From an uncultured Candidatus Saccharibacteria bacterium (GTDB lineage Bacteria > Patescibacteriota > Minisyncoccia > Phycocordibacterales > DSPV01): a stretch of DNA of 64,000 bases. Location: assembly GCA_964617735.1 (NCBI GenBank), contig CAZTXT010000001.1, forward strand, positions 138,338-202,337. Direction: 5' to 3'. Shown in pieces: positions 7,939 through 22,132 of the stretch (positions within the stretch are counted from its first letter, which is position 1; each line of letters begins with the position of its first letter). The notes below the pieces were generated by a model. It was not told the origin of the DNA. It worked only from the letters and a program-made list of their open reading frames with translations, and searched no databases. Made by a program: the position numbers and the translations under genes.

Positions 7939-9482
7939 AGATTTTGGGCAAGTTGTTTGGGCCGATAGGACAGCGCTTCCATCACATGTTTGCGGGTAAC
8001 CGCTTGGTCGCCTGCAAGATCCGCAATCGTTCGCGCGAGTTTGAGGACGCGATGATACGCGCGTCCGGAGAGATCGAGTTTTGCCGCCGATGCATTGAAT
8101 TCTCTCCGATCGTCTGGGCTTAACGTAACGAGCCGGTCGAGGTCTTTTGCCGTAAGCTCGCTGTTCGTTCGATATGGAAGTCCGGCGTTTTTGAACCGCT
8201 CATGCTGCCGCTCTCGGGCGCGTACGATGCGCTGCATCACCGCAGCGCTCGCTTCCCCGCGCTTCGACTCGTCGGAGAGCGTCGAATATTCTACAGGACC
8301 TACCTCGACCCACAGATCGATGCGGTCCATAATGGGCCCGGAGATTTTGCGGCGATAGCGGATGAGTTGGGTTTGCGTGCAGATGCAGGGCTTACGCGAT
8401 CCCCAGTTGCCGCAGGGACACGGGTTCATCGCGGCGATGAGTATGAATTGGGCGGGATAGGATGCGAAACCTTTCACCCTCGTGATCGAAATGGTCCTAT
8501 CCTCGAGCGGCTGCCGAAGGCCTTCGATGACCCGATGCTCGAATTCGGGGAATTCATCCAAAAAGAGCACGCCGTGATGCGCGAGCGTTATCTCGCCGGG
8601 CTTCGGCGTCGTCCCTCCCCCGACGATGGAGACGTGTGAAGCGGTATGATGCGGCGAGCGGAAGGGCGCGGTGGTAATGAGTTCTCCCTTAAGGGTCCCC
8701 GCGATCGAATGGATCGCGGTCGCATCGAGTATCTGTTCAAAGGTAAGCGATGGCAAGAGAGCCGTGAAGGCGCGCGCAAGCATGGTTTTTCCGGTACCGG
8801 GCGGCCCGTACATCGCGATGTTGTGCGCACCAGCAGCGGCGATTTCGAGACCGCGTTTGGCGCTCTCCTGGCCTCTGATATCGGAGAGGTCGATGGATGA
8901 ACTGGCGCTCTGACTTTGGATTTTCGTTTTGCTCTGCAGCGGGATTTTTATTTTTTGCGGGGCTTTATCATTCAGATGGGCGATGACCTCGGAGAGGGAT
9001 GTTACGGGAAAGACATCGATGCCTTCAATGAGCGCCGCTTCGCGTGCATTGGCTGCAGGTACGTAGAGTTCCCTAAATCCACTCCGTTTGGCGGCTTTCG
9101 TCAGCGGCAGGGTTCCGGTGATCGGACGCACCGCACCATCGAGCGCGAGCTCTCCGAGAAAGAGCCGGCGTGCAGGATCGAAAACGATCTCTTCTGCGGC
9201 GAGCAGGTAGCCCAACGCCATCGCGAGATCGAAATTGGCGCCCTCTTTTTTAAGATCCGCGGGCGCGAGCGACACCACGACTTTTTGGTTCTTGCTCTTG
9301 GGAGAATCGAATCCGGAATTTTTTATGGCGGATGCGATACGATCTCGCGCCTCCTCGACGGCTTTATCGGGAAGTCCGACGATAGAGAATGCATGCAGTC
9401 CTCTCGAGAGATCGACTTCAACGTCGATGATCGCGCCGTCGAGGAGGGTTGTCTGGGCGCTGTACGTTTTTGCGAAAGACAT
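7935..9482 (-). CDS. comM: Mg-chelatase-like AAA+ ATPase YifB/ComM (competence-associated)
   Basis: Lon-like N-terminal domain. Walker A GPPGTGKT. C-terminal Mg_chelatase motifs. 515 aa. Confidence 0.9.
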   Translation of the reverse strand: MSFAKTYSAQTTLLDGAIIDVEVDLSRGLHAFSIVGLPDKAVEEARDRIASAIKNSGFDSPKSKNQKVVVSLAPADLKKEGANFDLAMALGYLLAAEEIVFDPARRLFLGELALDGAVRPITGTLPLTKAAKRSGFRELYVPAANAREAALIEGIDVFPVTSLSEVIAHLNDKAPQKIKIPLQSKTKIQSQSASSSIDLSDIRGQESAKRGLEIAAAGAHNIAMYGPPGTGKTMLARAFTALLPSLTFEQILDATAIHSIAGTLKGELITTAPFRSPHHTASHVSIVGGGTTPKPGEITLAHHGVLFLDEFPEFEHRVIEGLRQPLEDRTISITRVKGFASYPAQFILIAAMNPCPCGNWGSRKPCICTQTQLIRYRRKISGPIMDRIDLWVEVGPVEYSTLSDESKRGEASAAVMQRIVRARERQHERFKNAGLPYRTNSELTAKDLDRLVTLSPDDRREFNASAAKLDLSGRAYHRVLKLARTIADLAGDQAVTRKHVMEALSYRPKQLAQNL

Positions 9483-9527
9483 AGCGATGCGGATTAGTAT
9501 TGTGCGCTCGGTGTTTGACCGAGTCTG

Positions 9528-9890
9528 TTACTGCATATGCTTCAGACACGTCGTTGCAGCCGGATTTGCTTCCAGTCGTCGCAGGTCAATCGGGTCGCCA
9601 CAGACGCTGCAGAGCCCGTACACCCCTTTCTCGATGCGCTCGAGAGCGGCTTTGATCTCATTGACACGTATCTCGAGTTGTTTGAGGATAGCGGTGTTTT
9701 CTTCGTAGGATTCGATGCCATCCGCGACCTCGTTGGGGTCGGCAGCCATGATATCGAGTTTATCTGGAACCGCTTCCCAGTCTTTCGGATTGCTCGGATT
9801 GATCCGGCCGATGGATGCAAGTTCTGATTCCACTTGCGCACGCTCTTCTTCGAGGCGTGCTTTAAATTTTTCTTGAGACCCTTTTTCCAT
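9528..9890 (-). CDS. dksA: DksA/TraR family C4-type zinc-finger protein
   Basis: Coiled-coil N-terminus plus C-terminal CSVCGDPI...TCLKH four-cysteine motif. 120 aa. Confidence 0.75.
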   Translation of the reverse strand: MEKGSQEKFKARLEEERAQVESELASIGRINPSNPKDWEAVPDKLDIMAADPNEVADGIESYEENTAILKQLEIRVNEIKAALERIEKGVYGLCSVCGDPIDLRRLEANPAATTCLKHMQ

Positions 9891-9932
9891 AATGGTATGG
9901 TAGCGAGTCGAGCTTCAAAATGCAACTGGAAT

Positions 9933-10877
9933 TTATTGTCCCCGTTTCAATTTCTCGAGGATCTCGCCGTAGGTCTTCGCATTGGTCGTGATGACTAACG
10001 TCGAGGGATCGACGAACGAATAGAGGAGTACGATATCTCCCAGTTCATTCTTGACCACGCGCGCGTCATGATTCTTTACCACCGCGTCTTGAAAGAGTTG
10101 CGCGCCAGGATCCGTGCCGAAATACGCGTCAGTGGTGGTGGGAAGTTTAGGCGGGTGTGCAGCATCGGTGAAGAAAGCTTCCCCCGCGTTGCGATAGAAA
10201 TCAACTTCACTCTTGAGCATTCCCGCGTACGCGCTCTGGTATGAGTCGGTCCGGACGATGAGGAAGGGTTGGTTTCCGTCAAAACCTAAAATGCCAAAGG
10301 CGAAGCTTTCATTGAGGGAGCGCAGGAAGGCGGATGAGACGTCGGGCGCGATCTTTGAGAGAAAGCCTTGCGTGTCGAGTGTAGTAGTATTACCCGCCGC
10401 ATCCGCTTCGGTGAAGACGAGCCCCTCGGTCGAATTGAGCCGCAGCGTTGACTGGTCGCGCTCTTGAATCAGGGCATCGAGGATTTTGTGGTGTGAGAGG
10501 CCGGTAAGGCTCAGGGTTTTTATGGTATCGATGGGGATGATGGATTGTCCTGCAACCGTCGCTGTGTTGCCGTTCTCCGGCGCGGGCCTAAGGTAGAGGT
10601 ATACGAGAAACACGGCGATGCCGGCGATCACGATGATGCCCGAGAGCGTCATCAACATCCGTCCGTCCCATCGCGATGGGACCGCTTCTTCGGGAACGAT
10701 GGGTTCAACCGGTTTCTGTTTCAGTTTTTCCTGCCCCTCGACGACCATCGTGGCGACGCTCGTGCGTTCATGCTTGAGCACGTCCGCGACGTCCGACTCG
10801 AAGGTCCGGAGTGCTTTGACGGGTGCTCCATTGGGAGTTTCTTTTTTTTGAGAATCTTCGGCCATGGCCTCTATCAT
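9933..10877 (-). CDS. hypothetical single-pass membrane protein
   Basis: 314-aa ORF with one TM helix (MLMTLSGIIVIAGIAVFLVYLYL) and a large extracytoplasmic domain. No recognisable family. Confidence 0.5.
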   Translation of the reverse strand: MIEAMAEDSQKKETPNGAPVKALRTFESDVADVLKHERTSVATMVVEGQEKLKQKPVEPIVPEEAVPSRWDGRMLMTLSGIIVIAGIAVFLVYLYLRPAPENGNTATVAGQSIIPIDTIKTLSLTGLSHHKILDALIQERDQSTLRLNSTEGLVFTEADAAGNTTTLDTQGFLSKIAPDVSSAFLRSLNESFAFGILGFDGNQPFLIVRTDSYQSAYAGMLKSEVDFYRNAGEAFFTDAAHPPKLPTTTDAYFGTDPGAQLFQDAVVKNHDARVVKNELGDIVLLYSFVDPSTLVITTNAKTYGEILEKLKRGQ

Positions 10878-10944
10878 AACGCAGAACCTGTCTTTGATAG
10901 AAGCCGGGCGTCATCAGGTACCTGATGACGCCCGGGCGTAAGGA

Positions 10945-13137
10945 TTATCGATGTCTGAAACCGCCGCTACGGCCGTCCCGTCGATGCGGCGGACGGTGCG
11001 CTCTCTCGTGAGGCGCCCCGTCGCCTGCCCCCGCAGGCCGTTTGAAGAATTCAGAATTCGCGCTTTTTATCGAAAGATTGATGCGCCCTTTCTCATCTAT
11101 TTCACGCACCATCACGGGCACTCGGTCGCCTTCTTTCACAAGATCGGTGACTCGTTCCACTCTCCAGGGCGCCATTTCTGAAATATGCACGAGTCCTTCC
11201 GCGCTGTAGCCTATTTTGACGAAGGCGCCGAAGTCCATGAGCCGGGTAACTTCTCCCTCAAACCGCTCGCCGGGGAGATATTCGCGGGTCATATCGTGGA
11301 CGATATCGCGCGCCGCCTTTGCCGCCCCGTTCTTTCCCGTGATGAATACCGAGCCATCGTCTTCGATGTCGATCTGCGCGCCGGTCTTCTCCATGATGCC
11401 GTTGATGGTCTTACCACCGGTGCCGATGACCATGCCGATCTGATCCGGCTTGATCTTAAGCGAAAGTATTTCGGGGGCCGAAGGGTTCAATTGCGGACGG
11501 TGCGTCGGAATCTCTTTTTCGATGACGTCTAAGATCCGCAGACGCGCGCTTTTTGCTTTCTCGAATGCTTCGGCAAGAATTTTCAGTGTGATGCCCGCGA
11601 CTTTAACATCCATTTGTACCGCCGTGACACCCTCGCGCGTACCTGCGACTTTGAAGTCCATGTCGCCATGATGATCTTCGGGTCCCTGAATGTCCGTGAG
11701 CACTTTATATTTCTCCGGCGACTGCATCATTAATCCTGATGCGATGCCCGCGACTGCTCGCGTGATGGGAACGCCGGCATCAAGAAGTGCGAGCGTCGAG
11801 CCGCAGACCGAGCCCATTGAGGTCGAGCCGTTCGATGCGAACGCTTCCGAGACGATGCGGATCGTGTAGGGAAATTTTTCTTTGGTGGGGAGCACGGGCA
11901 CGAGCGCTTTTTCCGCAAGCGCGCCGTGGCCGATCATACGGCGGTTCATTCCGCCCATGCGACCGGTCTCGCCGGTCGAGAATGGCGGGAAGTTGTAGTG
12001 ATGCATGAATCCTTTTTTGCCCTGCACCTCCATGCCGTCCACGATCATCGAATCGCCCGGTCCACCCAGGGTGAGCACCGAAAGGATGTGCGTGCCGCCG
12101 CGGTAAAAGATTCCGGAGCCGTGCAGTACGGGCGAGACGCCGCCGGCTTGGACGAAGAGCGGCCTGATATCATCCATTCCACGTCCGTCGGGACGGCGGT
12201 TGTTCTCTATCGCTTCCGCGTGCACGAGGTCGTTCAATGCATCTTCGAAATAGGTCGCCGCGAATGACGGATCGATGTCCGGGTGCATTTCTCTGAACGT
12301 CTCCATCCACTCATGATGGATGGGGGTTATCGAGAATTTTCCGGGTTGTCCTGAAAAGACCGACTCCGCGAATTTTGGCGCGATCAGTTTTTTGAAGAGC
12401 GCGGGTACTTCGGGAGGAATCTCGGGAAAGGCCACTTCCTTTTTCGGCTTCCCCACTTCAGCGATGATGGTCTCCTGAAACTTCTGAAGTTTATCAATAA
12501 TAGAGAGTCCTTCCTCAAGCCCCGAGACCAACACATCCTCGCCGACTTCCTTGCTGCCGACCTCGATCATGTTGACGAGGCCGTCTTTGCCGCAAACCAA
12601 GAGGTCTAAATCGGCATCCTCGGCATTGCGATCGCTGTACGAGGGGTTGATGATGAAATTGTTGTCGTCTTTTTTCTTTCCAATGCGCACGGCTCCGACT
12701 GGCCCGTTCCAGGGAATCTCGGAGGTCGCTAACGCAAGCGATGCGGCTATTACCGCGAGCACGTCAGGGTCATCTTCGGCGATCGAGAGCACGGTGATGA
12801 CCACCTGCACCTCGTTGCGCATCCGGCCGTCGAAAAGTGGACGGATTGTGCGGTCTACGATACGGCCCGAGAGAATCGCTTCTTCGGTCGGTCGCCCCTC
12901 GCGCCGGATGAACCGAGAGCCTAAAATCTGCCCGGCAGCGTAAAAGCGCTCTTCATAGTCAACGGTGAGCGGAAACCAATCGCCATCGCGCGTCTGTTTC
13001 GACATTACGGCAGTCGCAAGAACGGTCGTGTTGCCATAGCGGACGATGCATGAACCGGTCGCCTGTTCGGCGAGGTCAGTAAATTGTGCGATCAGAGGTT
13101 TACCTCCAATCTCAATCGAAAACTCTTTTTTAGTCAT
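10945..13137 (-). CDS. pnp: polyribonucleotide nucleotidyltransferase (PNPase)
   Basis: Two RNase PH domains, KH (GKVIGTGGKTI-like) and S1 domains. 730 aa with an RG-rich tail. Confidence 0.95.
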   Translation of the reverse strand: MTKKEFSIEIGGKPLIAQFTDLAEQATGSCIVRYGNTTVLATAVMSKQTRDGDWFPLTVDYEERFYAAGQILGSRFIRREGRPTEEAILSGRIVDRTIRPLFDGRMRNEVQVVITVLSIAEDDPDVLAVIAASLALATSEIPWNGPVGAVRIGKKKDDNNFIINPSYSDRNAEDADLDLLVCGKDGLVNMIEVGSKEVGEDVLVSGLEEGLSIIDKLQKFQETIIAEVGKPKKEVAFPEIPPEVPALFKKLIAPKFAESVFSGQPGKFSITPIHHEWMETFREMHPDIDPSFAATYFEDALNDLVHAEAIENNRRPDGRGMDDIRPLFVQAGGVSPVLHGSGIFYRGGTHILSVLTLGGPGDSMIVDGMEVQGKKGFMHHYNFPPFSTGETGRMGGMNRRMIGHGALAEKALVPVLPTKEKFPYTIRIVSEAFASNGSTSMGSVCGSTLALLDAGVPITRAVAGIASGLMMQSPEKYKVLTDIQGPEDHHGDMDFKVAGTREGVTAVQMDVKVAGITLKILAEAFEKAKSARLRILDVIEKEIPTHRPQLNPSAPEILSLKIKPDQIGMVIGTGGKTINGIMEKTGAQIDIEDDGSVFITGKNGAAKAARDIVHDMTREYLPGERFEGEVTRLMDFGAFVKIGYSAEGLVHISEMAPWRVERVTDLVKEGDRVPVMVREIDEKGRINLSIKSANSEFFKRPAGAGDGAPHERAHRPPHRRDGRSGGFRHR

Positions 13138-13165
13138 AGGATCTTGTGGATCCGTAGATTTTAGG

Positions 13166-13185
13166 TTTCAAAGTCGCCTTTGAAA
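13166..13185 (-). promoter_or_regulatory. stem-loop in the pnp 5' leader (TTTCAAAG-tcgc-CTTTGAAA), possible RNase III or autoregulatory hairpin
   Basis: Perfect 8-bp inverted repeat about 30 nt upstream of the pnp start. pnp leaders are known RNase III targets in other bacteria. Confidence 0.3.
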
Positions 13186-13306
13186 ACTACCTATCTAAGG
13201 ACCCGCTAATTGATATGCAAAGATGTTAGCATGAAACCCGAAAGTTGACAAATCCTGATATTGATGCAATATACTGTTCAGTTGAACTTCAAAAGAAAGG
13301 AAACTT

Positions 13307-13669
13307 ATGAGTTTTGCTGTTGTGAAAGTCTACGGTACACCTGAGTTCCACAAGAAAAATGTCCGCGTTTTCCTGCAGACACCCATAGATCAATGCATAA
13401 GAAATGTTATGTCGGGATATGTGGAGTCCATGGACGATGCCCAGGGTATCGTTGTGTTATTCATTCCGTCAGTTCAGGTAAATGGAGAGACACGCGAGGT
13501 GCTAATTGAAGCTCATCTTTCTTCCGTAAGACTCTACGAAGATTATGAACATCCGATACGGATGGAACTTTCTAAGTCTATAGCTTCATTGCTCAAGCCA
13601 CACGGGAATTTTGTGGTAACAACTCTAACCTCCCGGATAACAGGCTCTTCCTGTTCTTCAACTCAGTAG
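13307..13669 (+). CDS. hypothetical protein (120 aa) in an AT-rich islet. Good RBS (AAGGA 7 nt upstream of ATG) and an upstream TTGACA box.
   Basis: ORF ends at a bidirectional terminator. Local AT-rich composition contrasts with the flanks. No recognisable domain. Confidence 0.45.
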   Translation: MSFAVVKVYGTPEFHKKNVRVFLQTPIDQCIRNVMSGYVESMDDAQGIVVLFIPSVQVNGETREVLIEAHLSSVRLYEDYEHPIRMELSKSIASLLKPHGNFVVTTLTSRITGSSCSSTQ

Positions 13670-13677
13670 CAATTTCT

Positions 13678-13713
13678 AAAACGGCACCGATTACTCGGTG
13701 CCGTTTTCTTTTT
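13678..13713. terminator. bidirectional rho-independent terminator (ACGGCACCG-attact-CGGTGCCGT, with an A-run on one side and a T-run on the other)
   Basis: Perfect 9-bp stem with T-tracts on both strands, between convergent genes 13307..13669 (+) and 13712..14230 (-). Confidence 0.65.
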
Positions 13714-14230
13714 ACCTGCGTCCGACTCCCAAGAGATATTTACGCGGATTCTCGTCGAGGTCTTGGAAATGATCGGCGGCTTCGATGAGTTTCGCCGAGG
13801 TTGATTTGCCGAATGATACAACTTCCACCTGACAGCCCTGATTCTCCTGAAGGTATTTAACCAAAGGCACGAAATCTCCGTCGCCCGAAATGACGACGAC
13901 GGCGTCGAGTTTAGGTGCGAGCTTTATCGCATCCACCGCGAGCCCGACGTCCCAGTCGGCTTTTTTAGCGCCGCCCGCAAAGACTTGCAGGTCTTTCGTT
14001 TTAGTCTCGATCCCCACTTTCTCCAGTGCCTCGAAAAACCCTTTTTCTTCTCCGCTTTCTGTCGAAATGACATAGGCGACGGCGCGTATGAGATTGCGTC
14101 CCTCAAGCGCGTCTTTGACGACTTGACCAAAGTTAACGCGCGCATGATAGAGGTTTTTTGCGCTGTGGTAGAGATTTTGCGTGTCGATAAAAATGCCCAC
14201 CCGCTGTTCTTTATGTTTGATTACGCTCAT
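13712..14230 (-). CDS. NYN/LabA-like (PIN-related) domain protein
   Basis: N-terminal VGIFIDTQNLYHSAKN and later VVVISGDGDFVPLV are typical of the NYN (DUF88/LabA) fold. 172 aa. Confidence 0.7.
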   Translation of the reverse strand: MSVIKHKEQRVGIFIDTQNLYHSAKNLYHARVNFGQVVKDALEGRNLIRAVAYVISTESGEEKGFFEALEKVGIETKTKDLQVFAGGAKKADWDVGLAVDAIKLAPKLDAVVVISGDGDFVPLVKYLQENQGCQVEVVSFGKSTSAKLIEAADHFQDLDENPRKYLLGVGRR

Positions 14231-14329
14231 GAAAATAAATTTACTTGCTTAATAATACCGTGTTTCTTTAGCAAAACAAAGCTCGCTTTTTAGGAAGCTC
14301 AATCGAGGATCAAATAAGGAGAATGTCTA

Positions 14330-14599
14330 TTACTTCTTCTTCAGTTCAAGTTTGCGGACGATCGTGCCATAGCGGCGCGGATTTTTCTTTTGCAGATACT
14401 GCAAGTGCTTCTGGCGGTTTGCCACCATCGCGAGCAATCCCCTACGAGAGTGCTTGTCCTTGTTGTGTTTCTTAAGGTGAGCCGCGAGCTCTTCGATGCG
14501 TTTTGTCAAAAGAGAAACCTGCACCTCGGGAGAGCCCGTATCCTTATCATGAATGCCGGATTCTTTGATGATTCGCTGTTTCTTGGTCTTTGAAATCAT
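14330..14599 (-). CDS. rpsO: 30S ribosomal protein S15
   Basis: 89 aa. GSPEVQVSLLTKRIEELAAHLKKHNKDKHSRRGLL matches the S15 signature. Confidence 0.9.
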   Translation of the reverse strand: MISKTKKQRIIKESGIHDKDTGSPEVQVSLLTKRIEELAAHLKKHNKDKHSRRGLLAMVANRQKHLQYLQKKNPRRYGTIVRKLELKKK

Positions 14600-14665
14600 G
14601 GTGCATACAGAATAGCACGAAAGCCTGTATTATGCAAGACCTTTTTCAGCATTTTTAGGCAACCC

Positions 14666-15685
14666 ATGTACAGTGGGTGCAGGATACTTTTTGCGATTTG
14701 CTGGTTGCGGTGTCCCTATGCCTGTCGTGTCGCACAATGTTACCATAGCGCTATGGCAAGCGATATCGAGAAGCTCAAACGCCAATTTCTCGAGTATATC
14801 GAGATAGAAAAAGGCCGCGCGTTAAAGACTGTCGAGAATTACGACCGGTATCTCTCTCGTTTCATCGAGTATTCAAAGATAAAAAAGCCTAGCGGTATCA
14901 CTGAAGCTTCAGTGCGCGATTTTCGTCTCTGGCTTAATCGCCAACCCACTCACAACAAGTGGGTCAAGGGCGAAACCTTGAAGAAAAAGACCCAGAATTA
15001 TTATCTGATCGCGCTGCGCGCGTTTCTGAAATTCCTTTCCAAGCGCGGCATCAGCGCGATATCTCCAGAACATATCGAACTTGCGAAAGCTGGTGAGCGC
15101 TCACTTGACTTGATAACAGCCGAAGAACTTGCACGGCTCCTGAACGCTCCGAAGGATGCCGATCTCAAATCACTTCGGGACAAGGCCATTCTCGAGCTTC
15201 TCTTCTCGACCGGCCTGCGCGTATCGGAGCTTTGTTCCCTCACCCGTGACCTCGACCTTTCTGCCGATGAATTCTCGGTACGAGGCAAGGGAGAGAAAGT
15301 GCGAGTGGTATTCCTTTCGTCTCAGGCGAAAGCTGCGCTCAAGCGCTACCTCGCGGCGCGGACCGACGTCGATGATGCACTGTTCGTGAAAGTGAGTTGG
15401 GAGAGGAAGGGTAGAACCAAGGATTTTGCTCTGACCCCTCGCTCTGTAGAGCGTATTGTAAAATATCATGCTAATAAGGCGGGCATCTCGAAAAAAGTCA
15501 CCCCGCATGTCATACGCCATTGTTTCGCGACCGATCTTCTCTCCAACGGCGCGGACCTGCGGTCGGTCCAGGCACTTTTAGGCCATGCCAATATCGGTAC
15601 CACGCAGATCTATACCCACGTAACGGATAAGCATTTACACGAGGTCCACAAAGCCTTTCACGGTCGTGTCAGGAAAAAGGCTTGA
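14666..15685 (+). CDS. xerC: tyrosine site-specific recombinase XerC/XerD family. Probable true start at the ATG at 14753 (MASDIEKLK...).
   Basis: C-terminal catalytic motifs HVIRHCFATDLL and LLGHANIGTTQIYTHV (R-H-R-Y family). N-terminal SAM-like core-binding domain. Confidence 0.85.
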   Translation: MYSGCRILFAICWLRCPYACRVAQCYHSAMASDIEKLKRQFLEYIEIEKGRALKTVENYDRYLSRFIEYSKIKKPSGITEASVRDFRLWLNRQPTHNKWVKGETLKKKTQNYYLIALRAFLKFLSKRGISAISPEHIELAKAGERSLDLITAEELARLLNAPKDADLKSLRDKAILELLFSTGLRVSELCSLTRDLDLSADEFSVRGKGEKVRVVFLSSQAKAALKRYLAARTDVDDALFVKVSWERKGRTKDFALTPRSVERIVKYHANKAGISKKVTPHVIRHCFATDLLSNGADLRSVQALLGHANIGTTQIYTHVTDKHLHEVHKAFHGRVRKKA

Positions 15686-15766
15686 CATATTCCGTATCTG
15701 TACTATAATACTTGTAGGTTTCTCTTAAGACCCGGAACCATCCGGGCGCAACCGTTAGTGTGATCT

Positions 15767-16102
15767 ATGAAAACTAAAACCAGTTCATTGCCGACAATCC
15801 GTATGATGTGGATTGTTCCGAACCCGAACTCACAACTCCCACGGACTGTTACTGAAGCTTCTCTCGAGGAGCTTCATCGTTCATTAGGAGTATTCAAGGC
15901 TTCTCTCTGGATAAGTGGGAAGGCTTCGGGAGGAAAATTCTCCTCCCGGAAATTCCTACCGTATCCTGGCTGCGGTGTTGAAGCCTACAGGGTTTGCTTC
16001 GCTGCAGCGGTGCATGAGAGGGATATCCTCAACATCGTCGAGAAGCACGGTTTTACAAAGTATGTAGAACCTTCCGTTCCTCCACTCCCGGTCGCCGCCT
16101 GA
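15767..16102 (+). CDS. hypothetical protein (111 aa) immediately downstream of the recombinase, followed by a strong terminator
   Basis: ORF with terminator 16118..16155. No recognisable domain. Confidence 0.35.
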   Translation: MKTKTSSLPTIRMMWIVPNPNSQLPRTVTEASLEELHRSLGVFKASLWISGKASGGKFSSRKFLPYPGCGVEAYRVCFAAAVHERDILNIVEKHGFTKYVEPSVPPLPVAA

Positions 16103-16117
16103 AATACGCGCGAAAAA

Positions 16118-16155
16118 GCCCAGTCCGTCAAAGACGGACTGGGCTGATTTTTTTT
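16118..16155 (+). terminator. rho-independent terminator (GCCCAGTCCGTC-aaa-GACGGACTGGGC followed by a T-run)
   Basis: Perfect 12-bp stem followed by 8 T residues. Confidence 0.75.
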
Positions 16156-16181
16156 ATTAAAATCTTTCCGCGTAGTTTGCT

Positions 16182-16967
16182 ATGATAGTGAGCATGAAAC
16201 TTGTCTCATGGAATGTGAATGGAATACGCGCATGCCATCGGAAGGGCTGTTTTAATTGGTTTTTTGAATATCAACCGGATATTTTCTGTCTTCAGGAGAT
16301 CAAATCAGGTATCGATCAGGTGCCAGAAGAGTTGAAAGCTCCTCAAGGATATTTTTCCTACTTTGATAGTCCTAAGGAGAAAAAAGGATATAGCGGTGTC
16401 GCAGTATATTCAAAGACTGAACCTGAAAAGGTTCAATACGGCATCGGTATAAAGGAATTTGACCAAGAAGGTCGTTGCATAGCTTTGAAATTCAAAGATT
16501 TCTGGCTCTACAACGTTTACTTCCCTAACGGCGGCCAGGGACCTCACCGTCTCAAATTCAAGCTAGGATTTTACGACGCATTTCTCAAGCACATCGAGCG
16601 TTTACGCAAAAAAGGTGAAGCAGTGATCTTTTGCGGTGACATCAACACTGCGCATCAAGAAATTGATCTAGCACGGCCGAAAGAAAACGAAAAGAACACC
16701 GGTTTTCTTCCGATCGAACGAGCATGGCTCGATAAAGTCGAGAAGCTTGACTACATTGACACTTTCCGATATTTCTTTCCTGACAAGAAAGGAGTGTATA
16801 CCTATTGGGACCAGAAGACCTTCGCGAGAGAGAGAAATGTAGGATGGCGCCTCGATTATTTCTTTATCACTCCTGATTTACAGGCGCAGCTTAAATCAGC
16901 TCACATTTTTGAAGTGGTTCTCGGTTCAGACCATTGTCCGATAGGGATTGAACTTAGGGATCTATAA
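16182..16967 (+). CDS. xth: exodeoxyribonuclease III (AP endonuclease, EEP family)
   Basis: MKLVSWNVNGIRA, CLQEIK, and the DHCPIGIEL C-terminus. 261 aa. The likely start is the internal MKLVSW at 16194. Confidence 0.9.
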   Translation: MIVSMKLVSWNVNGIRACHRKGCFNWFFEYQPDIFCLQEIKSGIDQVPEELKAPQGYFSYFDSPKEKKGYSGVAVYSKTEPEKVQYGIGIKEFDQEGRCIALKFKDFWLYNVYFPNGGQGPHRLKFKLGFYDAFLKHIERLRKKGEAVIFCGDINTAHQEIDLARPKENEKNTGFLPIERAWLDKVEKLDYIDTFRYFFPDKKGVYTYWDQKTFARERNVGWRLDYFFITPDLQAQLKSAHIFEVVLGSDHCPIGIELRDL

Positions 16968-17212
16968 AGGACATTTATCCACAGAATGTCCTTTACATGT
17001 CCTTTATGAGTCTTATAATGCTAGTCAGGAGTTGACGCAATTCGCTCTCGAAATGCATAAATACTCAAACTGTTCTTTTACAAGAGAGAAGTCACTATCT
17101 CTTTTGCGAAAGATTTGTTCAGAAAGGTGAATACTTTGGGTGTACATATCTCACCCATTCATTTCGGGTATGTGCCCGAGTTTCACATGAAATTTCTGAA
17201 CGGTTCTTTCAT

Positions 17213-17257
17213 ACCGCTCAGAAAGATTTTCCCACTCCTCTTCTGAGCGGTTTTTTT
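17213..17257 (+). terminator. rho-independent terminator (CCGCTCAGAA ... TTCTGAGCGG followed by TTTTTTT) ending a roughly 290-nt AT-rich region downstream of xth
   Basis: 10-bp stem plus a 7-T run on the plus strand. It overlaps the stop codon of the convergent cca gene. Confidence 0.55.
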
Positions 17258-18770
17258 ATTTCACCCAGTATCGATCTCGTATTTTCTTTAGGTTTTTCTC
17301 TTCGGCAGCTTCTTTTTTTGCTTTACCGATGTTGCCGAGATTTTCTAATTTTTTATCGCTCAAAGATGCTAATTCTTTAACCCGGCTTTCAAGCTTCTCG
17401 GCTGTATTGAGCGCCGGATTTTCCATTACATCTTCCAACAAGACGTGCAAAATATGGCCCACCTTAGGTCCCGGTTCGATTTTTGCGATTTCCATTACCT
17501 TCGCCCCGTTGATTTTAAGCATACTTACCGTTATCGGATCATGCATCACCTCTTCCACCATAGACTTGTATTTTCGTAGTCTATACGGATGCTCTTTAGG
17601 CCTTCCTGTTCCAATTCTGTCACAGACGCGCACGTTCATAAGGTCCCATATATTTTCCTTTCCAACGTTCCTCAAAAGTCTGCGGACCGAAGAGAGGGTT
17701 ATCTGATCGGTGTCCGAGAAAAACATATGCCATCGAACCAATGTAACGACTTTTTCAATGGTTTTCACGGGAAACATAAGCTTCGAGAGGATTTTGGCCG
17801 TCATTTTGCTTCCCATGACGTCATGGCCGTGGAAAGTCCAATCTTTTTTTTCCTCTGACCATTTTCGAGCTGGTACTTTCCCTATATCGTGGAAAAGGGC
17901 AGCTAGCCTTACTTCGAGTGACCAGCCATTTTTCGCGGCATGTTGAAGGGTACGAAGTAAATGTTCCCAAACGTCATATGCGTGAGCTTTATTCTGTTTT
18001 ATACCGATAGTTTCAGTAAGTTCAGGGAGAAATATTGTAAGTAAGCCATATTCTTTCAGAAGGATGATTCCATTCATTGGTTGATCGGACATAAGAATCC
18101 GGGCGAATTCGTCCCGTACTCTTTCACGTGAAACTCCTGAAAGATGTTTTGCATTCCTCTTTATTGCTTCTGATGTCTCTTTTTCTATTGAGAAATCAAG
18201 TTCTGTGGAAAGTCTTATTGCTCTCATTATCCTCAAAGCGTCTTCCTTAAATCGCTCATCTGGGTCGCCAACAGCTCGGATAATGCGCATCCGGATGTCG
18301 TCCTGTCCTTTATAAAGGTCAACTATGTGTCCTTTATACCTAGAATGTCCTTTATGCTCGGCGAGCTTTACTGCTATGGCATTTATGGTGAAATCCCTTC
18401 GCTTAAGATCGTCTTCAATGTTGTTGCTGAACGATACCGAGTCGGGGTGTCGCTGATTTGAATATTTTGATTCAAGCCGATATGGGGTTACCTCAACTGT
18501 TTTAGTTGTCTCATCTTCGCTCTCTTCATTGACTACGCCGACTGTTCCATACTCATTTTCATAGAAGGTTTTTGGGAAAATAGATAGTATCTTCTCTGGC
18601 GTTGCGCTTGTCGTTATGTCCCAATCCTTCGGTTTTTTACCGATAAGCATATCCCGGGTGCACCCGCCGATGAGATAGGCCTCAAAACCCTGTTCTTCAA
18701 GGGTTTTAGCGATCTTCGCGACCGCCTCGGGTATGGTGAATAGCTTCTCTTTCATAGTCCCAGTTGGCAA
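17256..18770 (-). CDS. cca: CCA-adding enzyme / tRNA nucleotidyltransferase with a C-terminal HD domain. Probable ATG start at 18755 (MKEKLF...), because the track start is a TTG.
   Basis: FEAYLIGGCTRDMLIG...DWDITT PolyA_pol head domain. HD motif LAALFHDIGK in the C-terminal half. Confidence 0.85.
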   Translation of the reverse strand: MPTGTMKEKLFTIPEAVAKIAKTLEEQGFEAYLIGGCTRDMLIGKKPKDWDITTSATPEKILSIFPKTFYENEYGTVGVVNEESEDETTKTVEVTPYRLESKYSNQRHPDSVSFSNNIEDDLKRRDFTINAIAVKLAEHKGHSRYKGHIVDLYKGQDDIRMRIIRAVGDPDERFKEDALRIMRAIRLSTELDFSIEKETSEAIKRNAKHLSGVSRERVRDEFARILMSDQPMNGIILLKEYGLLTIFLPELTETIGIKQNKAHAYDVWEHLLRTLQHAAKNGWSLEVRLAALFHDIGKVPARKWSEEKKDWTFHGHDVMGSKMTAKILSKLMFPVKTIEKVVTLVRWHMFFSDTDQITLSSVRRLLRNVGKENIWDLMNVRVCDRIGTGRPKEHPYRLRKYKSMVEEVMHDPITVSMLKINGAKVMEIAKIEPGPKVGHILHVLLEDVMENPALNTAEKLESRVKELASLSDKKLENLGNIGKAKKEAAEEKNLKKIRDRYWVK

Positions 18771-18784
18771 AATTTTAGTATATC

Positions 18785-18813
18785 TTTGGCAATTTAGCTA
18801 ATTTTAGCTATGA
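18785..18813 (+). promoter_or_regulatory. promoter candidate for tRNA-Arg (TTGGCA - 17 nt - TATGAT)
   Basis: Hexamers read directly. The -10 ends about 8 nt before the tRNA 5' end. Confidence 0.35.
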
Positions 18814-18821
18814 TTTTTTGA

Positions 18822-18896
18822 TGCTCCCGTGGTGAAATGGATATCACAACAGTCTTCGGAACTGTTGTTCCAGGTTCGAGTCCTGGCGGGAGCACC
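18822..18896 (+). tRNA. tRNA-Arg (anticodon TCG), CCA encoded
   Basis: Manual cloverleaf: acceptor GCTCCCG/CGGGAGC, D-stem GTGA/TCAC, anticodon stem ACAGT/ACTGT with loop CTTCGGA, T-arm CCAGG-TTCGAGT-CCTGG, 3' ACCA. Confidence 0.8.
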
Positions 18897-18947
18897 AGAT
18901 TGGACTTTGCGATGCTCAAAGTAAAGAGAGGATTTCTTTCCTTTGTT

Positions 18948-18975
18948 TTGCAAAGTTATGTTTTGTCCCTATAAT
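18948..18975 (+). promoter_or_regulatory. near-consensus sigma70 promoter for tRNA-Gly (TTGCAA - 16 nt - TATAAT)
   Basis: Hexamers read directly. The -10 ends 19 nt upstream of the tRNA 5' end. Confidence 0.5.
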
Positions 18976-18994
18976 TACAGGGCGATTCGTGAGA

Positions 18995-19065
18995 GCGGGT
19001 ATCGTTTAGTGGTAGGACGGTTCCTTGCCAAGGAACAGGTGGGAGTTCGATTCTCCCTACCCGCA
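18995..19065 (+). tRNA. tRNA-Gly (anticodon GCC)
   Basis: Acceptor GCGGGTA/TACCCGC, anticodon stem GTTCC/GGAAC with loop TTGCCAA, T-arm GGGAG-TTCGATT-CTCCC. No encoded CCA. Confidence 0.8.
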
Positions 19066-19181
19066 TAGGTGTCCTTTAGCTTCAAGAGATCGTTTTGTGC
19101 TTATTTTTAGGGATACATTGAGATCATGTGGATAAGTTTGTGGATATGTGTATAAAGGACAAGAACGATGTCTTTTAGCTT

Positions 19182-19625
19182 GTGGAAATGGATCGGAATA
19201 GTCCGAGACGGGGAGTGTTTCTAAGTAACCTGATTCACGTGGAAAATATCAACCACATCGACGTTGGTAAAAAAGGAGAAGAGATCGCCTGCCGATATCT
19301 CAAGAGCAAAGGGCATCACATTGTCGAACGAAACTTTCGTAAAAAATTCGGAGAGATAGATATCGTCAGTCGAAAAGGAAATAAGGTTTATATTTGTGAA
19401 GTCAAAACATTCGCGTATGATGGTCGAAATGGCGCGGGATCGCATCGGCCGGAAGACAATGTGACGCCATGGAAGTTGAAAAAACTTTCGCGGGTCGTTC
19501 AGATTTATCTGGTAAAAAAGTTCGGTACAGAATTTCCTGAATGGGAATTTTTAGTCGCTTCGGTGGTGTTGGATATGGAAAGGAGGATCGCGAGAATAAA
19601 GATCATCGCTGACGTGCTGGCATAA
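19182..19625 (+). CDS. yraN: YraN/UPF0102 family putative endonuclease. The track start is GTG; the true start is probably further downstream.
   Basis: GEEIACRYLKSKGHHIVERNFR...GEIDIVSRKGNKVYICEVKT matches the YraN (Holliday-junction-resolvase-like) signature. Confidence 0.7.
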   Translation: MEMDRNSPRRGVFLSNLIHVENINHIDVGKKGEEIACRYLKSKGHHIVERNFRKKFGEIDIVSRKGNKVYICEVKTFAYDGRNGAGSHRPEDNVTPWKLKKLSRVVQIYLVKKFGTEFPEWEFLVASVVLDMERRIARIKIIADVLA

Positions 19626-19668
19626 GCTGCACGCAGCGAGGACTATCGATGAGGAGGATTTGTTGCAA

Positions 19669-19739
19669 CGGGCTGTAGTATAGCGGTAGTATATGTGCTT
19701 TGGGAGCATAAGGTCCGGGTTCGACTCCCGGCAGCCCGA
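19669..19739 (+). tRNA. tRNA-Pro (anticodon TGG)
   Basis: Acceptor CGGGCTG/CAGCCCG, D-stem GTAT/GTAT with G-U pairs, anticodon stem TGTGC/GCATA with loop TTTGGGA (G37 typical of Pro), T-arm CCGGG-TTCGACT-CCCGG. Confidence 0.75.
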
Positions 19740-19842
19740 GCGTTAGAGAGGGATGAGCGAGCAATGGGAGTTGCTCGCAACGGGAGGCGAAGCCCGATTG
19801 AGTTCCGCCGAAGGTGGACCAATCAGGGTACTGAACCGGTAC

Positions 19843-19865
19843 GGTTCGACTCCCGGTAGCCCAAG
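19843..19865 (+). repeat. direct repeat of the tRNA-Pro 3' end (21/23 nt identical to 19718..19740), att-core-like
   Basis: GGTTCGACTCCCGG[C/T]AGCCC[G/A]AG occurs twice, 125 nt apart. The second copy has no complete cloverleaf around it. Confidence 0.45.
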
Positions 19866-20309
19866 AGGCGCAGTGAGCGATTTTTAGCGAAAGAGATCGT
19901 CACCAAAATTCTAAGATTTCTGCAACGTAGTGTTGCTGCCACGGTGAGCGCTAGGCACGAATGGAGAGAAAAATATTTTGTGTTGTTTACGCGGCATGGA
20001 ACGTGGGAGGATGTCAGTGTTGCAACCACTCGTGCACTAGAAAAGTTTAGGGGAGAATCGGGCAAATACTGACTGCGCGTATCGGAGCACTCGCCCCTAT
20101 ACGCTGGTTTCGTTTCTGGAGGGCAGGTCAAAGGGTGTTGGGTAATACTGAAGAGATAATCGTGGGGATTTAGAGAAGAAACCATAGCTCATGCAAGTAC
20201 CGTGCCTATAGAGAACGATTCTTATTTGAGTGAACACCTTCTGTCGACCTTAGAACCTTCCGTAGACCTTAAAAAAGAGTAGTATGGTAGCAATCAAATC
20301 AAAAAACGT

Positions 20310-20918
20310 ATGAGACCGGAACGGGCACTTCGTCAGCTTAATGAGTTGAGAACATTGGGAAATACTATGCGTCTCGCCGCGGATGGCTGGAAAGAGCCAT
20401 GGCAGACGCTTATCGCCATTATCATGTCTGCGCGAACGCGCGACGAAGTGACTATTGCAGTGAGCGAGAGGCTTTTTAAGCGATATCCGACCGTGGAGCG
20501 GCTTGCGCGCGCGAGTCGGGGAGTGATCGAGAAGATCATCCGGCCGGTGAACTTCTACCGCAACAAAGCGAAATCGGTCCTCAACTGTGCGCGATCGCTT
20601 GTCACAAATCATCACGGGCGACCACCTGAGACCGTCGAAGAGCTTGTTTTGCTTCCCGGTGTGGGCCGTAAAACAGCGAATGTTTTTTTGACGGCGAGAG
20701 GGTATGATGCAATCGGAGTCGACACGCACGTTGCATACATTTCCCGAGAGCTTGGTTGGACGAAAAATCGCGATCCACACAAGATCGAAAAAGATCTTGA
20801 AGCGCTGTTTCCTCAACATATCTGGAAAGATGTGAACACGACTTGTGTGCAGTTCGGCAAAACGCATTTGAGTAGGAAAAAGAAAAAAGCGTTGTTGATG
20901 CGTATCCGTTCCCTTTAA
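20310..20918 (+). CDS. nth: endonuclease III-like HhH-GPD DNA glycosylase
   Basis: LIAIIMSARTRDEV (helix before the HhH), LPGVGRKTANVFL, and catalytic Asp in GVDTHV. 202 aa. Confidence 0.85.
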   Translation: MRPERALRQLNELRTLGNTMRLAADGWKEPWQTLIAIIMSARTRDEVTIAVSERLFKRYPTVERLARASRGVIEKIIRPVNFYRNKAKSVLNCARSLVTNHHGRPPETVEELVLLPGVGRKTANVFLTARGYDAIGVDTHVAYISRELGWTKNRDPHKIEKDLEALFPQHIWKDVNTTCVQFGKTHLSRKKKKALLMRIRSL

Positions 20919-20926
20919 ATCATCGC

Positions 20927-21754
20927 ATGCAGTTATCTACTGATACAGTTCAAAAGTTTCAGGATACGATCGCGGCGCACTATCGATTGCGCGGGCGGGT
21001 TTTTCCGTGGAGGAACACGCGCGACCCATATCACATTTTGGTTTCCGAAATCATGTTACAGCAAACTCAAGCGGATCGCGTCGTTCCGTTCTTTGAGCGA
21101 TTCATAAAACTTTTTCCTACGGTGGCCTCGCTGGCCAAAGCGAAACCGCGCACACTCCTGCGCGCGTGGCAAGGACTTGGTTATAATCGCCGCGCGCTCT
21201 ATCTCAAGCGCGCGGCTGAAGCGATACGCACAGAATTCTCTTCCATAGTTCCCCGCACAGTGCACGAATTAGAATCTCTGCCGGGGGTGGGGAAGTACAC
21301 CGCCGCTGCAGTCATGGCATTCGCGTACAGTGCGCCGGTCGCATTTATCGAAACGAATATCCGCAGCGTCTATCTCCATTTCTTTTTTAAAAATAAAAGA
21401 TCGGTCAGTGATCGTGCTATTCTCTCGCTCGTCGAGCAAACGCTTGACCGGAAGAATCCCGGCGTCTGGTATCAAGCGCTCATGGATTATGGCGCTCTTC
21501 TTAAAAAAGAGAGCGGCAATCCGAACCAAAGAAGCAAGCACTACGTCAAACAGGGCGTATTCAAGGGTTCTCGACGTCATGTACGCGGGCGCATCATCTC
21601 GTCTGCGCTCGCCGGTCCCTTGACGGCGCTTGAGATGCGGAAGTTACGAGCAGAGCATGCATTTTCTTCGACTCAAGTGGAGCAGGCGATCGCAGACCTT
21701 GTCGCCGAAGGATTTCTGCGGCGCAAAGGCGCTTCATTCGTCCTCTCCGAATGA
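20927..21754 (+). CDS. A/G-specific adenine glycosylase-like (MutY-like) HhH-GPD protein
   Basis: ILVSEIMLQQTQADRV and LPGVGKYTAAAVMAFAY HhH-GPD motifs. 275 aa. The 4Fe-4S cysteine cluster is not obvious. Confidence 0.75.
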   Translation: MQLSTDTVQKFQDTIAAHYRLRGRVFPWRNTRDPYHILVSEIMLQQTQADRVVPFFERFIKLFPTVASLAKAKPRTLLRAWQGLGYNRRALYLKRAAEAIRTEFSSIVPRTVHELESLPGVGKYTAAAVMAFAYSAPVAFIETNIRSVYLHFFFKNKRSVSDRAILSLVEQTLDRKNPGVWYQALMDYGALLKKESGNPNQRSKHYVKQGVFKGSRRHVRGRIISSALAGPLTALEMRKLRAEHAFSSTQVEQAIADLVAEGFLRRKGASFVLSE

Positions 21755-22035
21755 GCCGTCGATTCAAAAAAACTGTCGAACAATTCTCTTGCGAGCATTG
21801 CGGCGCGTTGGTGGAAGGGAATGGATTCACCAATCACTGCCCAATGTGCCTCTACAGCAAGCACAGCGATATCTTCCCCGGTGATCGGGCAAATCCGTGC
21901 GGGGGATTGATGGAGCCGATCAGCCTTGCGCTTAAACGCGACGCATATATCATTACCCATCGCTGTATGAAATGCGGGCAGGAGAAGAGGAATCGTGCAA
22001 GCGAGACCGACCATATTGAGATTTTGCTTCGCTGA
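21751..22035 (+). CDS. RNHCP domain zinc-ribbon protein
   Basis: CEHCGA...FTNHCPMC...CMKCGQ. Start overlaps the upstream stop (ATGA). Confidence 0.6.
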   Translation: MSRRFKKTVEQFSCEHCGALVEGNGFTNHCPMCLYSKHSDIFPGDRANPCGGLMEPISLALKRDAYIITHRCMKCGQEKRNRASETDHIEILLR

Positions 22036-22061
22036 TTTTCTTCAGGTATAGTAGCGGGGTT

Positions 22062-22132
22062 GCGGGTGTGGTTTAGTGGTAGGACGACTGCCTTCCAAGC
22101 AGTAGGCGCGAGTTCGATTCTCGCCACCCGCA
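22062..22132 (+). tRNA. tRNA-Gly (anticodon TCC)
   Basis: Acceptor GCGGGTG/CACCCGC, anticodon stem ACTGC/GCAGT with loop CTTCCAA, T-arm GCGAG-TTCGATT-CTCGC. Confidence 0.8.

Follow-up and report, generated by a model that had tools for sequence, protein, structure and literature searches.

A conserved gene for a predicted NYN endoribonuclease and a predicted leader RNA in the rpsO-pnp cluster of Parcubacteria-type bacteria

We analysed a 64,000-nucleotide stretch of DNA (the window) from contig CAZTXT010000001.1 of an uncultured bacterium of the candidate phyla radiation (CPR), and within it the cluster that holds rpsO, encoding ribosomal protein S15, and pnp, encoding polynucleotide phosphorylase (PNPase). 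The genomes of CPR bacteria are very small, and little is understood of how they metabolise RNA. The minus strand of the cluster carries rpsO, a gene for a LabA-like NYN-domain protein (the NYN gene) and pnp, in this order, and a small open reading frame (ORF) on the plus strand converges on the NYN gene (Table 1). The classical rpsO-pnp operon is present here in a variant form that includes a conserved NYN gene, an uncatalogued pnp leader and a rare accessory gene. The NYN gene itself is no selfish insertion; it is a core gene of Parcubacteria-type CPR bacteria and is conserved to a very high degree. An earlier, sequence-only reading of this DNA had described an rpsO-pnp operon split by the NYN gene and an AT-rich orphan, and had offered two explanations, namely a selfish or defence-type insertion resembling a toxin-antitoxin (TA) module, or a lineage-specific RNA-processing factor. 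The genes and signals that it had placed here were all recovered by profile searches, direct reading and folding.

We consider it likely that the cluster is a vertically inherited housekeeping unit. In Parcubacteria/Paceibacteria its order would be a divergent xerC, rpsO, the NYN gene, a variable slot, the leader and pnp, a membrane protein gene and a dksA-like gene. The NYN protein would act as an endoribonuclease that is encoded, and in compact lineages co-transcribed, with S15 and PNPase, and the small ORF would be an unrelated accessory gene in the slot after NYN, divergent from pnp and sharing a palindromic -35 box with it. A bidirectional terminator would end both convergent transcripts, those of NYN and the small ORF, and pnp would be expressed in this genome from its own promoter, with a 5' untranslated region (UTR) consisting almost wholly of an irregular hairpin of ~60 nt. 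By analogy with Escherichia coli, this hairpin may be a cis-element for post-transcriptional autoregulation of PNPase, started by endonuclease cleavage.

The NYN gene and its place beside rpsO

The position of the NYN gene was compared in two samples of relatives. The genome sample consisted of the 80 best NYN loci, taken from one-genome-per-species contigs out of at least 548 confirmed matches; 78 of them were informative for the rpsO side, and in the other two the locus stops at the NYN gene. The metagenome sample comprised contigs retrieved by an RNA pattern alone (80 loci returned), and is independent of NYN similarity. rpsO was found directly upstream of NYN, on the same strand, in all 78 informative genome loci, and directly upstream in 15/15 NYN-bearing metagenome contigs, where NYN identity falls as low as 61%. 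The conserved backbone is a divergent xerC, rpsO and NYN, followed by pnp in 38 genome loci; in 29 genome loci a gene for a 314-aa protein and a DksA/TraR-like gene come directly after NYN. In every relative with pnp at this place (38 genome loci and 11 metagenome contigs), NYN lies between rpsO and pnp, so that these two are on the same strand yet not neighbours, unlike the E. coli type of adjacency. The sequence-only reading had proposed this synteny comparison to separate its two explanations, and the outcome speaks against the TA-like one.

The median gap between rpsO and NYN is 107 nt, with values of -4, 8, 10 and 18 nt in four lineages (L032, L045, L056 and L059), and gaps between NYN and pnp are as small as 9, 10 and 20 nt. 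In some lineages rpsO, NYN and pnp therefore form a tight operon, and to speak of a split operon is misleading, as the arrangement that is conserved is rpsO-NYN(-pnp). The next conserved gene follows NYN at distances of 24 to 4348 bp, and unrelated ORFs occupy this variable slot.

The NYN protein matched PF01936 with 127.7 bits (gathering cut-off 24.2 bits), residues 10-159 aligning with model positions 1-145 of 145, and matched VPA0982 of Vibrio parahaemolyticus (PDB 2QIP; PF01936/COG1432) at E=4.6e-28, residues 6-160 aligning with 8-161. The search for homologues yielded more than 8000, of which the best 120 have identities of 80-91%; the members of this set whose source is named come from Parcubacteria, Paceibacterota or Taylorbacteria-type CPR bacteria. 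In an alignment of 81 sequences, 67 of the 172 residues are invariant (cut-off >=98%), including D16, D94 and D117 and the motifs IDxQN, DWDVG and SGDGDF around these aspartates. The three residues align with D14, D92 and D115 of VPA0982 and, through the 2QIP alignment, with D358, D426 and D452 of MARF1, and are thus the predicted catalytic triad of NYN.

VPA0982 resembles the NYN protein further in being a single domain of ~165-172 aa with the same catalytic aspartates and motifs; unlike other LabA-like NYN proteins, the present clade is fixed beside rpsO and unusually well conserved, with ~75% median identity across the sampled Paceibacteria. The fold and the three essential aspartates are also shared with the CRISPR-associated NYN protein of Bacteroides fragilis (bioRxiv 10.1101/2024.04.08.588522) and the NYN domain of MARF1 (PMC6217404). 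The B. fragilis enzyme cleaves single-stranded RNA in a Mn2+-dependent, sequence-nonspecific manner, and the first aspartate of its triad is essential (bioRxiv 10.1101/2024.04.08.588522). By analogy with these two proteins, the chemistry expected of NYN would be that of a metal-dependent endonuclease on single-stranded RNA. The context here is housekeeping, as opposed to CRISPR or germline, accessory domains are absent, and the similarity is at the level of the domain only.

Conservation of NYN exceeds that of its neighbours. Among the genome loci, compared without the window, median pairwise identity was 74.9% for NYN, 65.9% for S15, 63.6% for XerC and 63.5% for PNPase, and NYN was above S15 in 1575 of 1711 pairs; since the 80 loci were picked by NYN similarity, NYN identity is inflated relative to that of its neighbours, and the pairwise comparison among loci corrects this partly. 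This selection is one of several points that weigh against the reading of the cluster given above. pnp is not next to NYN in 29 of 68 informative loci (about 43%), so that a neighbouring pnp cannot be a requirement for NYN function. A lax scan detected a terminator-like hairpin in the rpsO-NYN gap of 53 of 77 relatives, which means that co-transcription of rpsO and NYN is not general; in the window, the weak hairpin at this place folds no better than shuffled sequences (z=0.52). A survey of the PIN superfamily lists the LabA-like group, NYN.COG1432, as of unknown function (PMC5499597). As to the leader, control of pnp by hiding the Shine-Dalgarno (SD) sequence was considered and rejected, as the 3' arm lies at a variable distance from the ATG, often without an SD-like sequence.

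We infer that NYN is a Mg2+/Mn2+-dependent endoribonuclease acting on single-stranded RNA; together with S15 and PNPase, it probably serves the maturation of ribosomal RNA or of ribosomes, or the turnover of RNA in general. A lineage-specific RNA-processing factor, the other explanation of the sequence-only reading, fits the conservation, the synteny and the intact active site, and this part of it stands; the activity itself is a prediction. Gene neighbourhoods of the NYN.COG1432 group hint at tRNA or rRNA processing (PMC5499597). Our literature search found nothing linking NYN to Patescibacteria/CPR biology or to rpsO. Its nuclease fold, its conservation above S15 and its locked place beside rpsO, often with pnp, make NYN a strong candidate for a core enzyme of RNA processing that has been missing from the picture of the CPR radiation. 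If so, this would be the first physiological role for a widespread and functionally unassigned group of bacterial LabA-like NYN proteins.

The leader and promoter of pnp

The sequence-only reading had noted a leader of pnp with a perfect 8-bp hairpin; this hairpin is real, and is the tip of a larger structure of ~60 nt. The leader is laid out as an outer stem, GAUA-NN-YAG, a variable inner hairpin, CUR-AA-AUC and the other arm of the outer stem. The sequence from the window folds on its own with -24.8 kcal/mol (z=-3.8). Among relatives the inner stem covaries and differs in length, and the internal loop is asymmetric and bordered by invariant nucleotides (GAUA..AG / CU.AAAU). An alignment of 17 leader sequences contained 22 pairs, 15 of them with compensatory changes, with 94% of cells paired and none of 500 shuffles matching; the signal collapsed once the pairing partners were slid. 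A recount on 23 hits of the covariance model R1 gave compensatory changes in 16 of 22 pairs and 93% of cells paired, again with 0/500 shuffles as good.

R1 found 24 leader loci among 85 sources (905 kb), all directly 5' of pnp except one at a contig end, and no further match at E<1e-5 in this search space. It also confirmed 19 of the 80 metagenome pattern loci; in the 15 of these whose contig extends further, pnp always starts 7-37 nt downstream, and the same range of distances holds for genome and metagenome hits together. Among the 61 pattern loci that R1 did not confirm, none has pnp or NYN. In total the leader is present at 43 loci (for example L003:4511-4571, L035:7807-7884 and L124:2011-2070), and pnp is directly downstream wherever the contig is long enough; five contigs end too soon. 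At L040:7920-7979, a leader match of 59.5 bits is followed by 196 nt of repeat-like, palindrome-rich sequence up to the contig end, with no pnp.

A gathering-threshold search of the window with Rfam 15 returned only 4 tRNAs, and in E-value mode all Rfam matches in 13050..14700 had E>=1, far below gathering. Covariation, distribution and position together provide good support for a conserved, structured cis-RNA that is not catalogued, as predicted from the alignments. As one candidate, a mimic of the S15-binding site (G-U/G-C motif) in the leader was rejected; the candidate pair is G-U in just 8 of 23 sequences.

How the leader acts on pnp would have to be read from E. coli, where the rpsO-pnp locus has the promoter P1, the terminator T1, the pnp promoter P2, a leader stem-loop and the antisense RNA SraG, and where cleavage of the stem-loop by RNase III triggers autoregulation of PNPase (PMC5029454). 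The present cluster is like that locus in having rpsO upstream of pnp on the same strand, a pnp-proximal promoter-like site, a long irregular hairpin in the pnp leader and an oppositely oriented gene between rpsO and pnp. It differs in the NYN gene, conserved between rpsO and the pnp leader in relatives with pnp here, and in its opposite-strand element, a protein-coding gene divergent from pnp as against a small RNA antisense to the leader. The leader also has a sequence and a shape of its own, its internal loop is invariant, and no Rfam model matches it; cleavage and autoregulation are suggested here by analogy only. The leader suggests that post-transcriptional control of PNPase by a leader hairpin may date back much further, or occur more widely, than the enterobacterial model implies.

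The predicted start of pnp transcription lies ~10 nt upstream of the leader motif. Five loci (the window, L083, L003, L084 and L085) share an invariant -35 box in the promoter-like site and a conserved TGnTAnnnT element; in compact operons there is scarcely space for a pnp-proximal promoter. The -35 box is part of a palindrome, TTTGACAAA (13243..13252), which can be read as a -35 hexamer on both strands, TTGTCA towards pnp and TTGACA towards the small ORF, and is invariant in the same five loci (alignment A8). The -10 candidates of the small ORF, TG-CAATAT or TATACT at 16-19 nt downstream of TTGACA, are weaker, and the consensus scan did not call this plus-strand promoter. The arrangement suggests putative back-to-back promoters of pnp and the small ORF that share the TTTGACAAA box.

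Table 1. Features of the rpsO-pnp cluster, with positions counted in the window.
Feature	Position	Strand	Basis
pnp, polynucleotide phosphorylase, 730 aa	10945..13137	-	NF008805 E=1.7e-240; RNase_PH x2, KH and S1 domains
Predicted structured 5' leader RNA of pnp	13146..13206	-	R1 67.5 bits, E~1e-15; ends 8 nt before pnp ATG
Apex hairpin of leader, perfect 8-bp	13166..13185	-	Direct reading, fold
Promoter-like site for pnp, TTGTCA-17-TGcTAACAT (extended -10)	13223..13251	-	Consensus scan
Promoter-like site for small ORF; TTGACA at 13245..13250	13245..13275	+	Direct reading
Ribosome-binding site AAAGGAAA of small ORF	13296..13303	+	Direct reading; 3-5 nt before ATG
Small ORF, 120 aa	13307..13669	+	No Pfam or NCBIfam match
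Bidirectional intrinsic-terminator-like hairpin between small ORF and NYN	13678..13707	both	Sequence, folding
NYN gene, LabA-like, 172 aa, predicted metal-dependent endoribonuclease	13712..14230	-	PF01936 E=6.5e-37
rpsO-NYN intergenic region, 99 nt	14231..14329	-	Weak hairpin and U-run at ~14279..14300
rpsO, ribosomal protein S15, 89 aa	14330..14599	-	TIGR00952 E=9.5e-32

The small ORF and the convergent terminator

The sequence-only reading had placed a bidirectional terminator with a 9-bp stem between the convergent genes. It is present, and the stem is longer, a perfect 13 bp (a 9-bp G+C core and four A-U pairs) closed by a 4-nt loop, with an A-run and a T-run on opposite sides. The hairpin begins 9 nt past the stop codon of the small ORF and 4 nt past that of NYN. 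Its free energy is -21.9 kcal/mol on the plus strand and -25.3 kcal/mol on the minus strand (z=-5.7 and -7.1; 0/200 shuffles as good), and it is partly conserved at the same place in L003, the closest relative genome, whose NYN and PNPase are 90% and 80% identical to those of the window.

L003 also carries an ORF of 123 aa in the same slot and orientation as the small ORF. When the DNA of the two loci was aligned, the terminator, the 5' UTR (GAAAGGA and ATG), the TTTGACAAA box and the pnp leader were conserved, and no DNA alignment was obtained for the coding bodies of the two small ORFs. GAAAGGA upstream of the ATG, and the position of the start, are conserved in L003, L084 and L085. The small ORF is AT-rich, with a GC content of 0.441 and a GC content at third codon positions (GC3) of 0.438, against a median GC3 of 0.631 for the genes of the window.

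No significant Pfam, NCBIfam or PDB profile or structure match was found for the small ORF. An exhaustive HMMER scan of 1.8 billion representatives recovered P0122, a protein of 116 aa with full-length identity of 36% (E=6e-6), whose gene is likewise divergent from pnp on its own contig. The ORF of L003 and the proteins P0124-P0127 form a second group, type B, with the motif MPVLxxYGMP...GLGEELVCFV, the ORF of the window being type A; the family as a whole consists of six protein clusters. Homology between the window and L003 ORFs by direct sequence comparison was rejected (BLASTP E=3.9; a two-sequence hidden Markov model (HMM) misses the L003 ORF). Kinship of the two types is nevertheless indicated by an hhalign probability of 79.8% (E=1.4e-5, 88 columns), by the match of an HMM built from type B only to P0122 (E=6e-4) and by positional orthology. 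A repeat protein of 922 aa (P0123) was dismissed as a relative; its match (E=8.5e-5) covers only ~50 residues and was treated as spurious. The sequence-only reading was thus right that the ORF is AT-rich and preceded by TTGACA and a ribosome-binding site, and the ORF is real; it is no strict orphan, with P0122 and type B proteins as relatives.

The type B orthologues of L003 and L084 differ with dN=0.135 and dS about 1.5 (omega about 0.09), NYN dN for the same genome pair being 0.062. A model of the small ORF built with AlphaFold2 (AF2) from the six-sequence alignment reached pLDDT 73 and pTM 0.67, with the topology beta-alpha-beta-beta-alpha-beta, and the best matches in structure searches with this model were generic ferredoxin-like proteins; the modelled fold is thus ferredoxin-like. 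A tautomerase fold, guessed from Pro-1 of type B and the beta-alpha-beta repeats, was rejected, since the searches returned only generic ferredoxin-like folds; the single 4-OT-fold match came from a profile comparison, at E=0.79.

None of the other 79 genome loci contains a member of the family. P0126 and P0127 are encoded divergently from smpB, away from NYN (L086:367-768 and the P0127 contig). In both contexts, beside pnp and beside smpB, the gene for the tmRNA-binding protein, the family adjoins RNA-metabolism genes, in a tiny sample. Searches of phage and plasmid collections (tblastn) and of PADLOC with the small ORF gave no match. Between conserved flanks, the small genes of the window (13307..13669) and of close relatives (L003:4037-4408, L084:567-938 and L083:532-882) include deeply divergent versions, type A and type B being ~15% identical. 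The NYN proteins of the window and L003 differ by only 10%, yet the small genes beside them are of type A and type B, respectively; this looks like replacement at a fixed slot and not like gradual divergence. As far as the sequences allow us to judge, the small ORF is a real, lineage-restricted, rare and fast-evolving accessory gene without a specific tie to NYN. It is set apart from NYN by its absence from 79 loci, the smpB neighbours, the lack of PADLOC, phage or plasmid matches, and the variability of the slot.

Alternative readings and the wider neighbourhood

That NYN and the convergent small ORF form a TA-like or anti-phage module inserted into an ancestral rpsO-pnp operon was the first explanation of the sequence-only reading. 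NYN does have a PIN-like nuclease fold, as VapC toxins do, with a small gene nearby, as in VapBC; it matches PDLC01154 of PADLOC ("LabA-like NYN nuclease", E=1e-12) at the level of the domain, and the small ORF is AT-rich, atypical in codon usage and lineage-restricted. The distribution of NYN is neither patchy nor mobile, however, as it is fixed at its place in 78/78 and 15/15 loci and conserved above S15, and its supposed partner does not co-occur with it, being missing from the other 79 genome loci, with family members beside smpB in places without NYN. Unlike the genes of VapBC, the two do not form a co-directional, tight operon, and converge with a 13-bp terminator hairpin between their stop codons. 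The PADLOC match covers only residues 53-160 of NYN on positions 191-297 of the 310-position model, no partner protein matches PADLOC-DB 2.0, and the small ORF lacks phage and plasmid matches. The model of the small ORF is ferredoxin-like, at moderate confidence (pLDDT 73), and does not resemble a DNA-binding fold such as RHH, HTH or AbrB. The flanking genes are housekeeping genes as well (UvrD, an M23 peptidase, a ComM-like ATPase, ExoIII, a CCA-adding enzyme/poly(A) polymerase and tRNAs). We therefore regard a TA or defence module as highly improbable, and a PIN-like gene next to a small, homologue-poor ORF as insufficient grounds for a toxin-antitoxin call. It is also very unlikely that the small ORF is a chance or decaying ORF in a space between NYN and pnp that is merely regulatory DNA. 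Its codon log-odds (-0.116) are under the 5th percentile (0.134) of the genes of the window, a word-index search of 5.8 billion proteins returned the small ORF alone, and AF2 from the single sequence was poor (pLDDT 45); yet P0122 is a full-length homologue at the same position relative to pnp, conservation extends to the ribosome-binding site, the start codon and the terminator, none of the other five frames scores as well as the annotated one, the six-sequence alignment gave a compact model, and the low omega of the type B pair points the same way.

Two further alternatives concern the work of NYN. It might be a dedicated enzyme that cleaves the pnp leader, or the rpsO-NYN-pnp transcript, in the role that RNase III has in E. 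coli. Its gene lies exactly between rpsO and the leader, compact operons (L087, L093 and L160) place the leader within ~100 nt of the NYN stop codon, and the invariant internal loop resembles a protein recognition site. We nonetheless think this unlikely, given the 29 of 68 informative loci that have NYN and no pnp downstream, loci such as L146 and L152 that have the motif and pnp with neither NYN nor rpsO nearby, and a conservation of NYN far stronger than a regulator of a single target would need; characterised NYN nucleases, moreover, favour single-stranded RNA and are not sequence-specific (bioRxiv 10.1101/2024.04.08.588522). Alternatively, NYN could be a non-catalytic RNA-binding or regulatory protein of the LabA kind, as a substrate has yet to be demonstrated for any bacterial COG1432 protein of this type (PMC5499597) and LabA is known solely as a regulator of circadian output, defined genetically. 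The invariance of the three catalytic aspartates and their motifs makes this rather unlikely, the NYN domains of MARF1 and B. fragilis being active RNases that need these residues. The reading of the cluster as a vertically inherited housekeeping unit thus remains the one we favour. It can be extended to a bolder proposal, in which NYN would be a core, probably essential endoribonuclease of Paceibacteria working, physically or functionally, with S15 and PNPase, for example in 16S rRNA/30S maturation or in the initiation of RNA decay, and in which autoregulatory RNAs would gain a new class with the pnp leader, its invariant internal loop being recognised by NYN or PNPase; taken as a whole, we hold this to be possible, though doubtful.

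Beyond the cluster, RNA-metabolism genes are abundant in the neighbourhood. The stretch 17256..22132 holds the CCA-adding enzyme/poly(A) polymerase gene (17256..18770, minus strand), four tRNA genes (18823..22132) and a YraN/UPF0102 nuclease-like gene (19182..19625). A gene for a XerC/D-like tyrosine recombinase occupies 14666..15685 on the plus strand, its true start probably being near 14753. As xerC is near rpsO in 68 of the 80 relatives, almost always divergent, it is a Xer gene of the housekeeping kind and does not mark an island as an integrase would. The GC content of 9000..18000 is a mosaic, ranging from 0.39 to 0.61 in 300-nt windows; it is ~0.56 in pnp and the genes downstream of it and ~0.40 at 13050..13650 and 16200..17400. 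The record titles of the metagenome-assembled genomes behind loci L003-L082 include many named "uncultured Candidatus Saccharibacteria", one Nanoarchaeia and one Gammaproteobacteria, labels that are probably generic or wrong.

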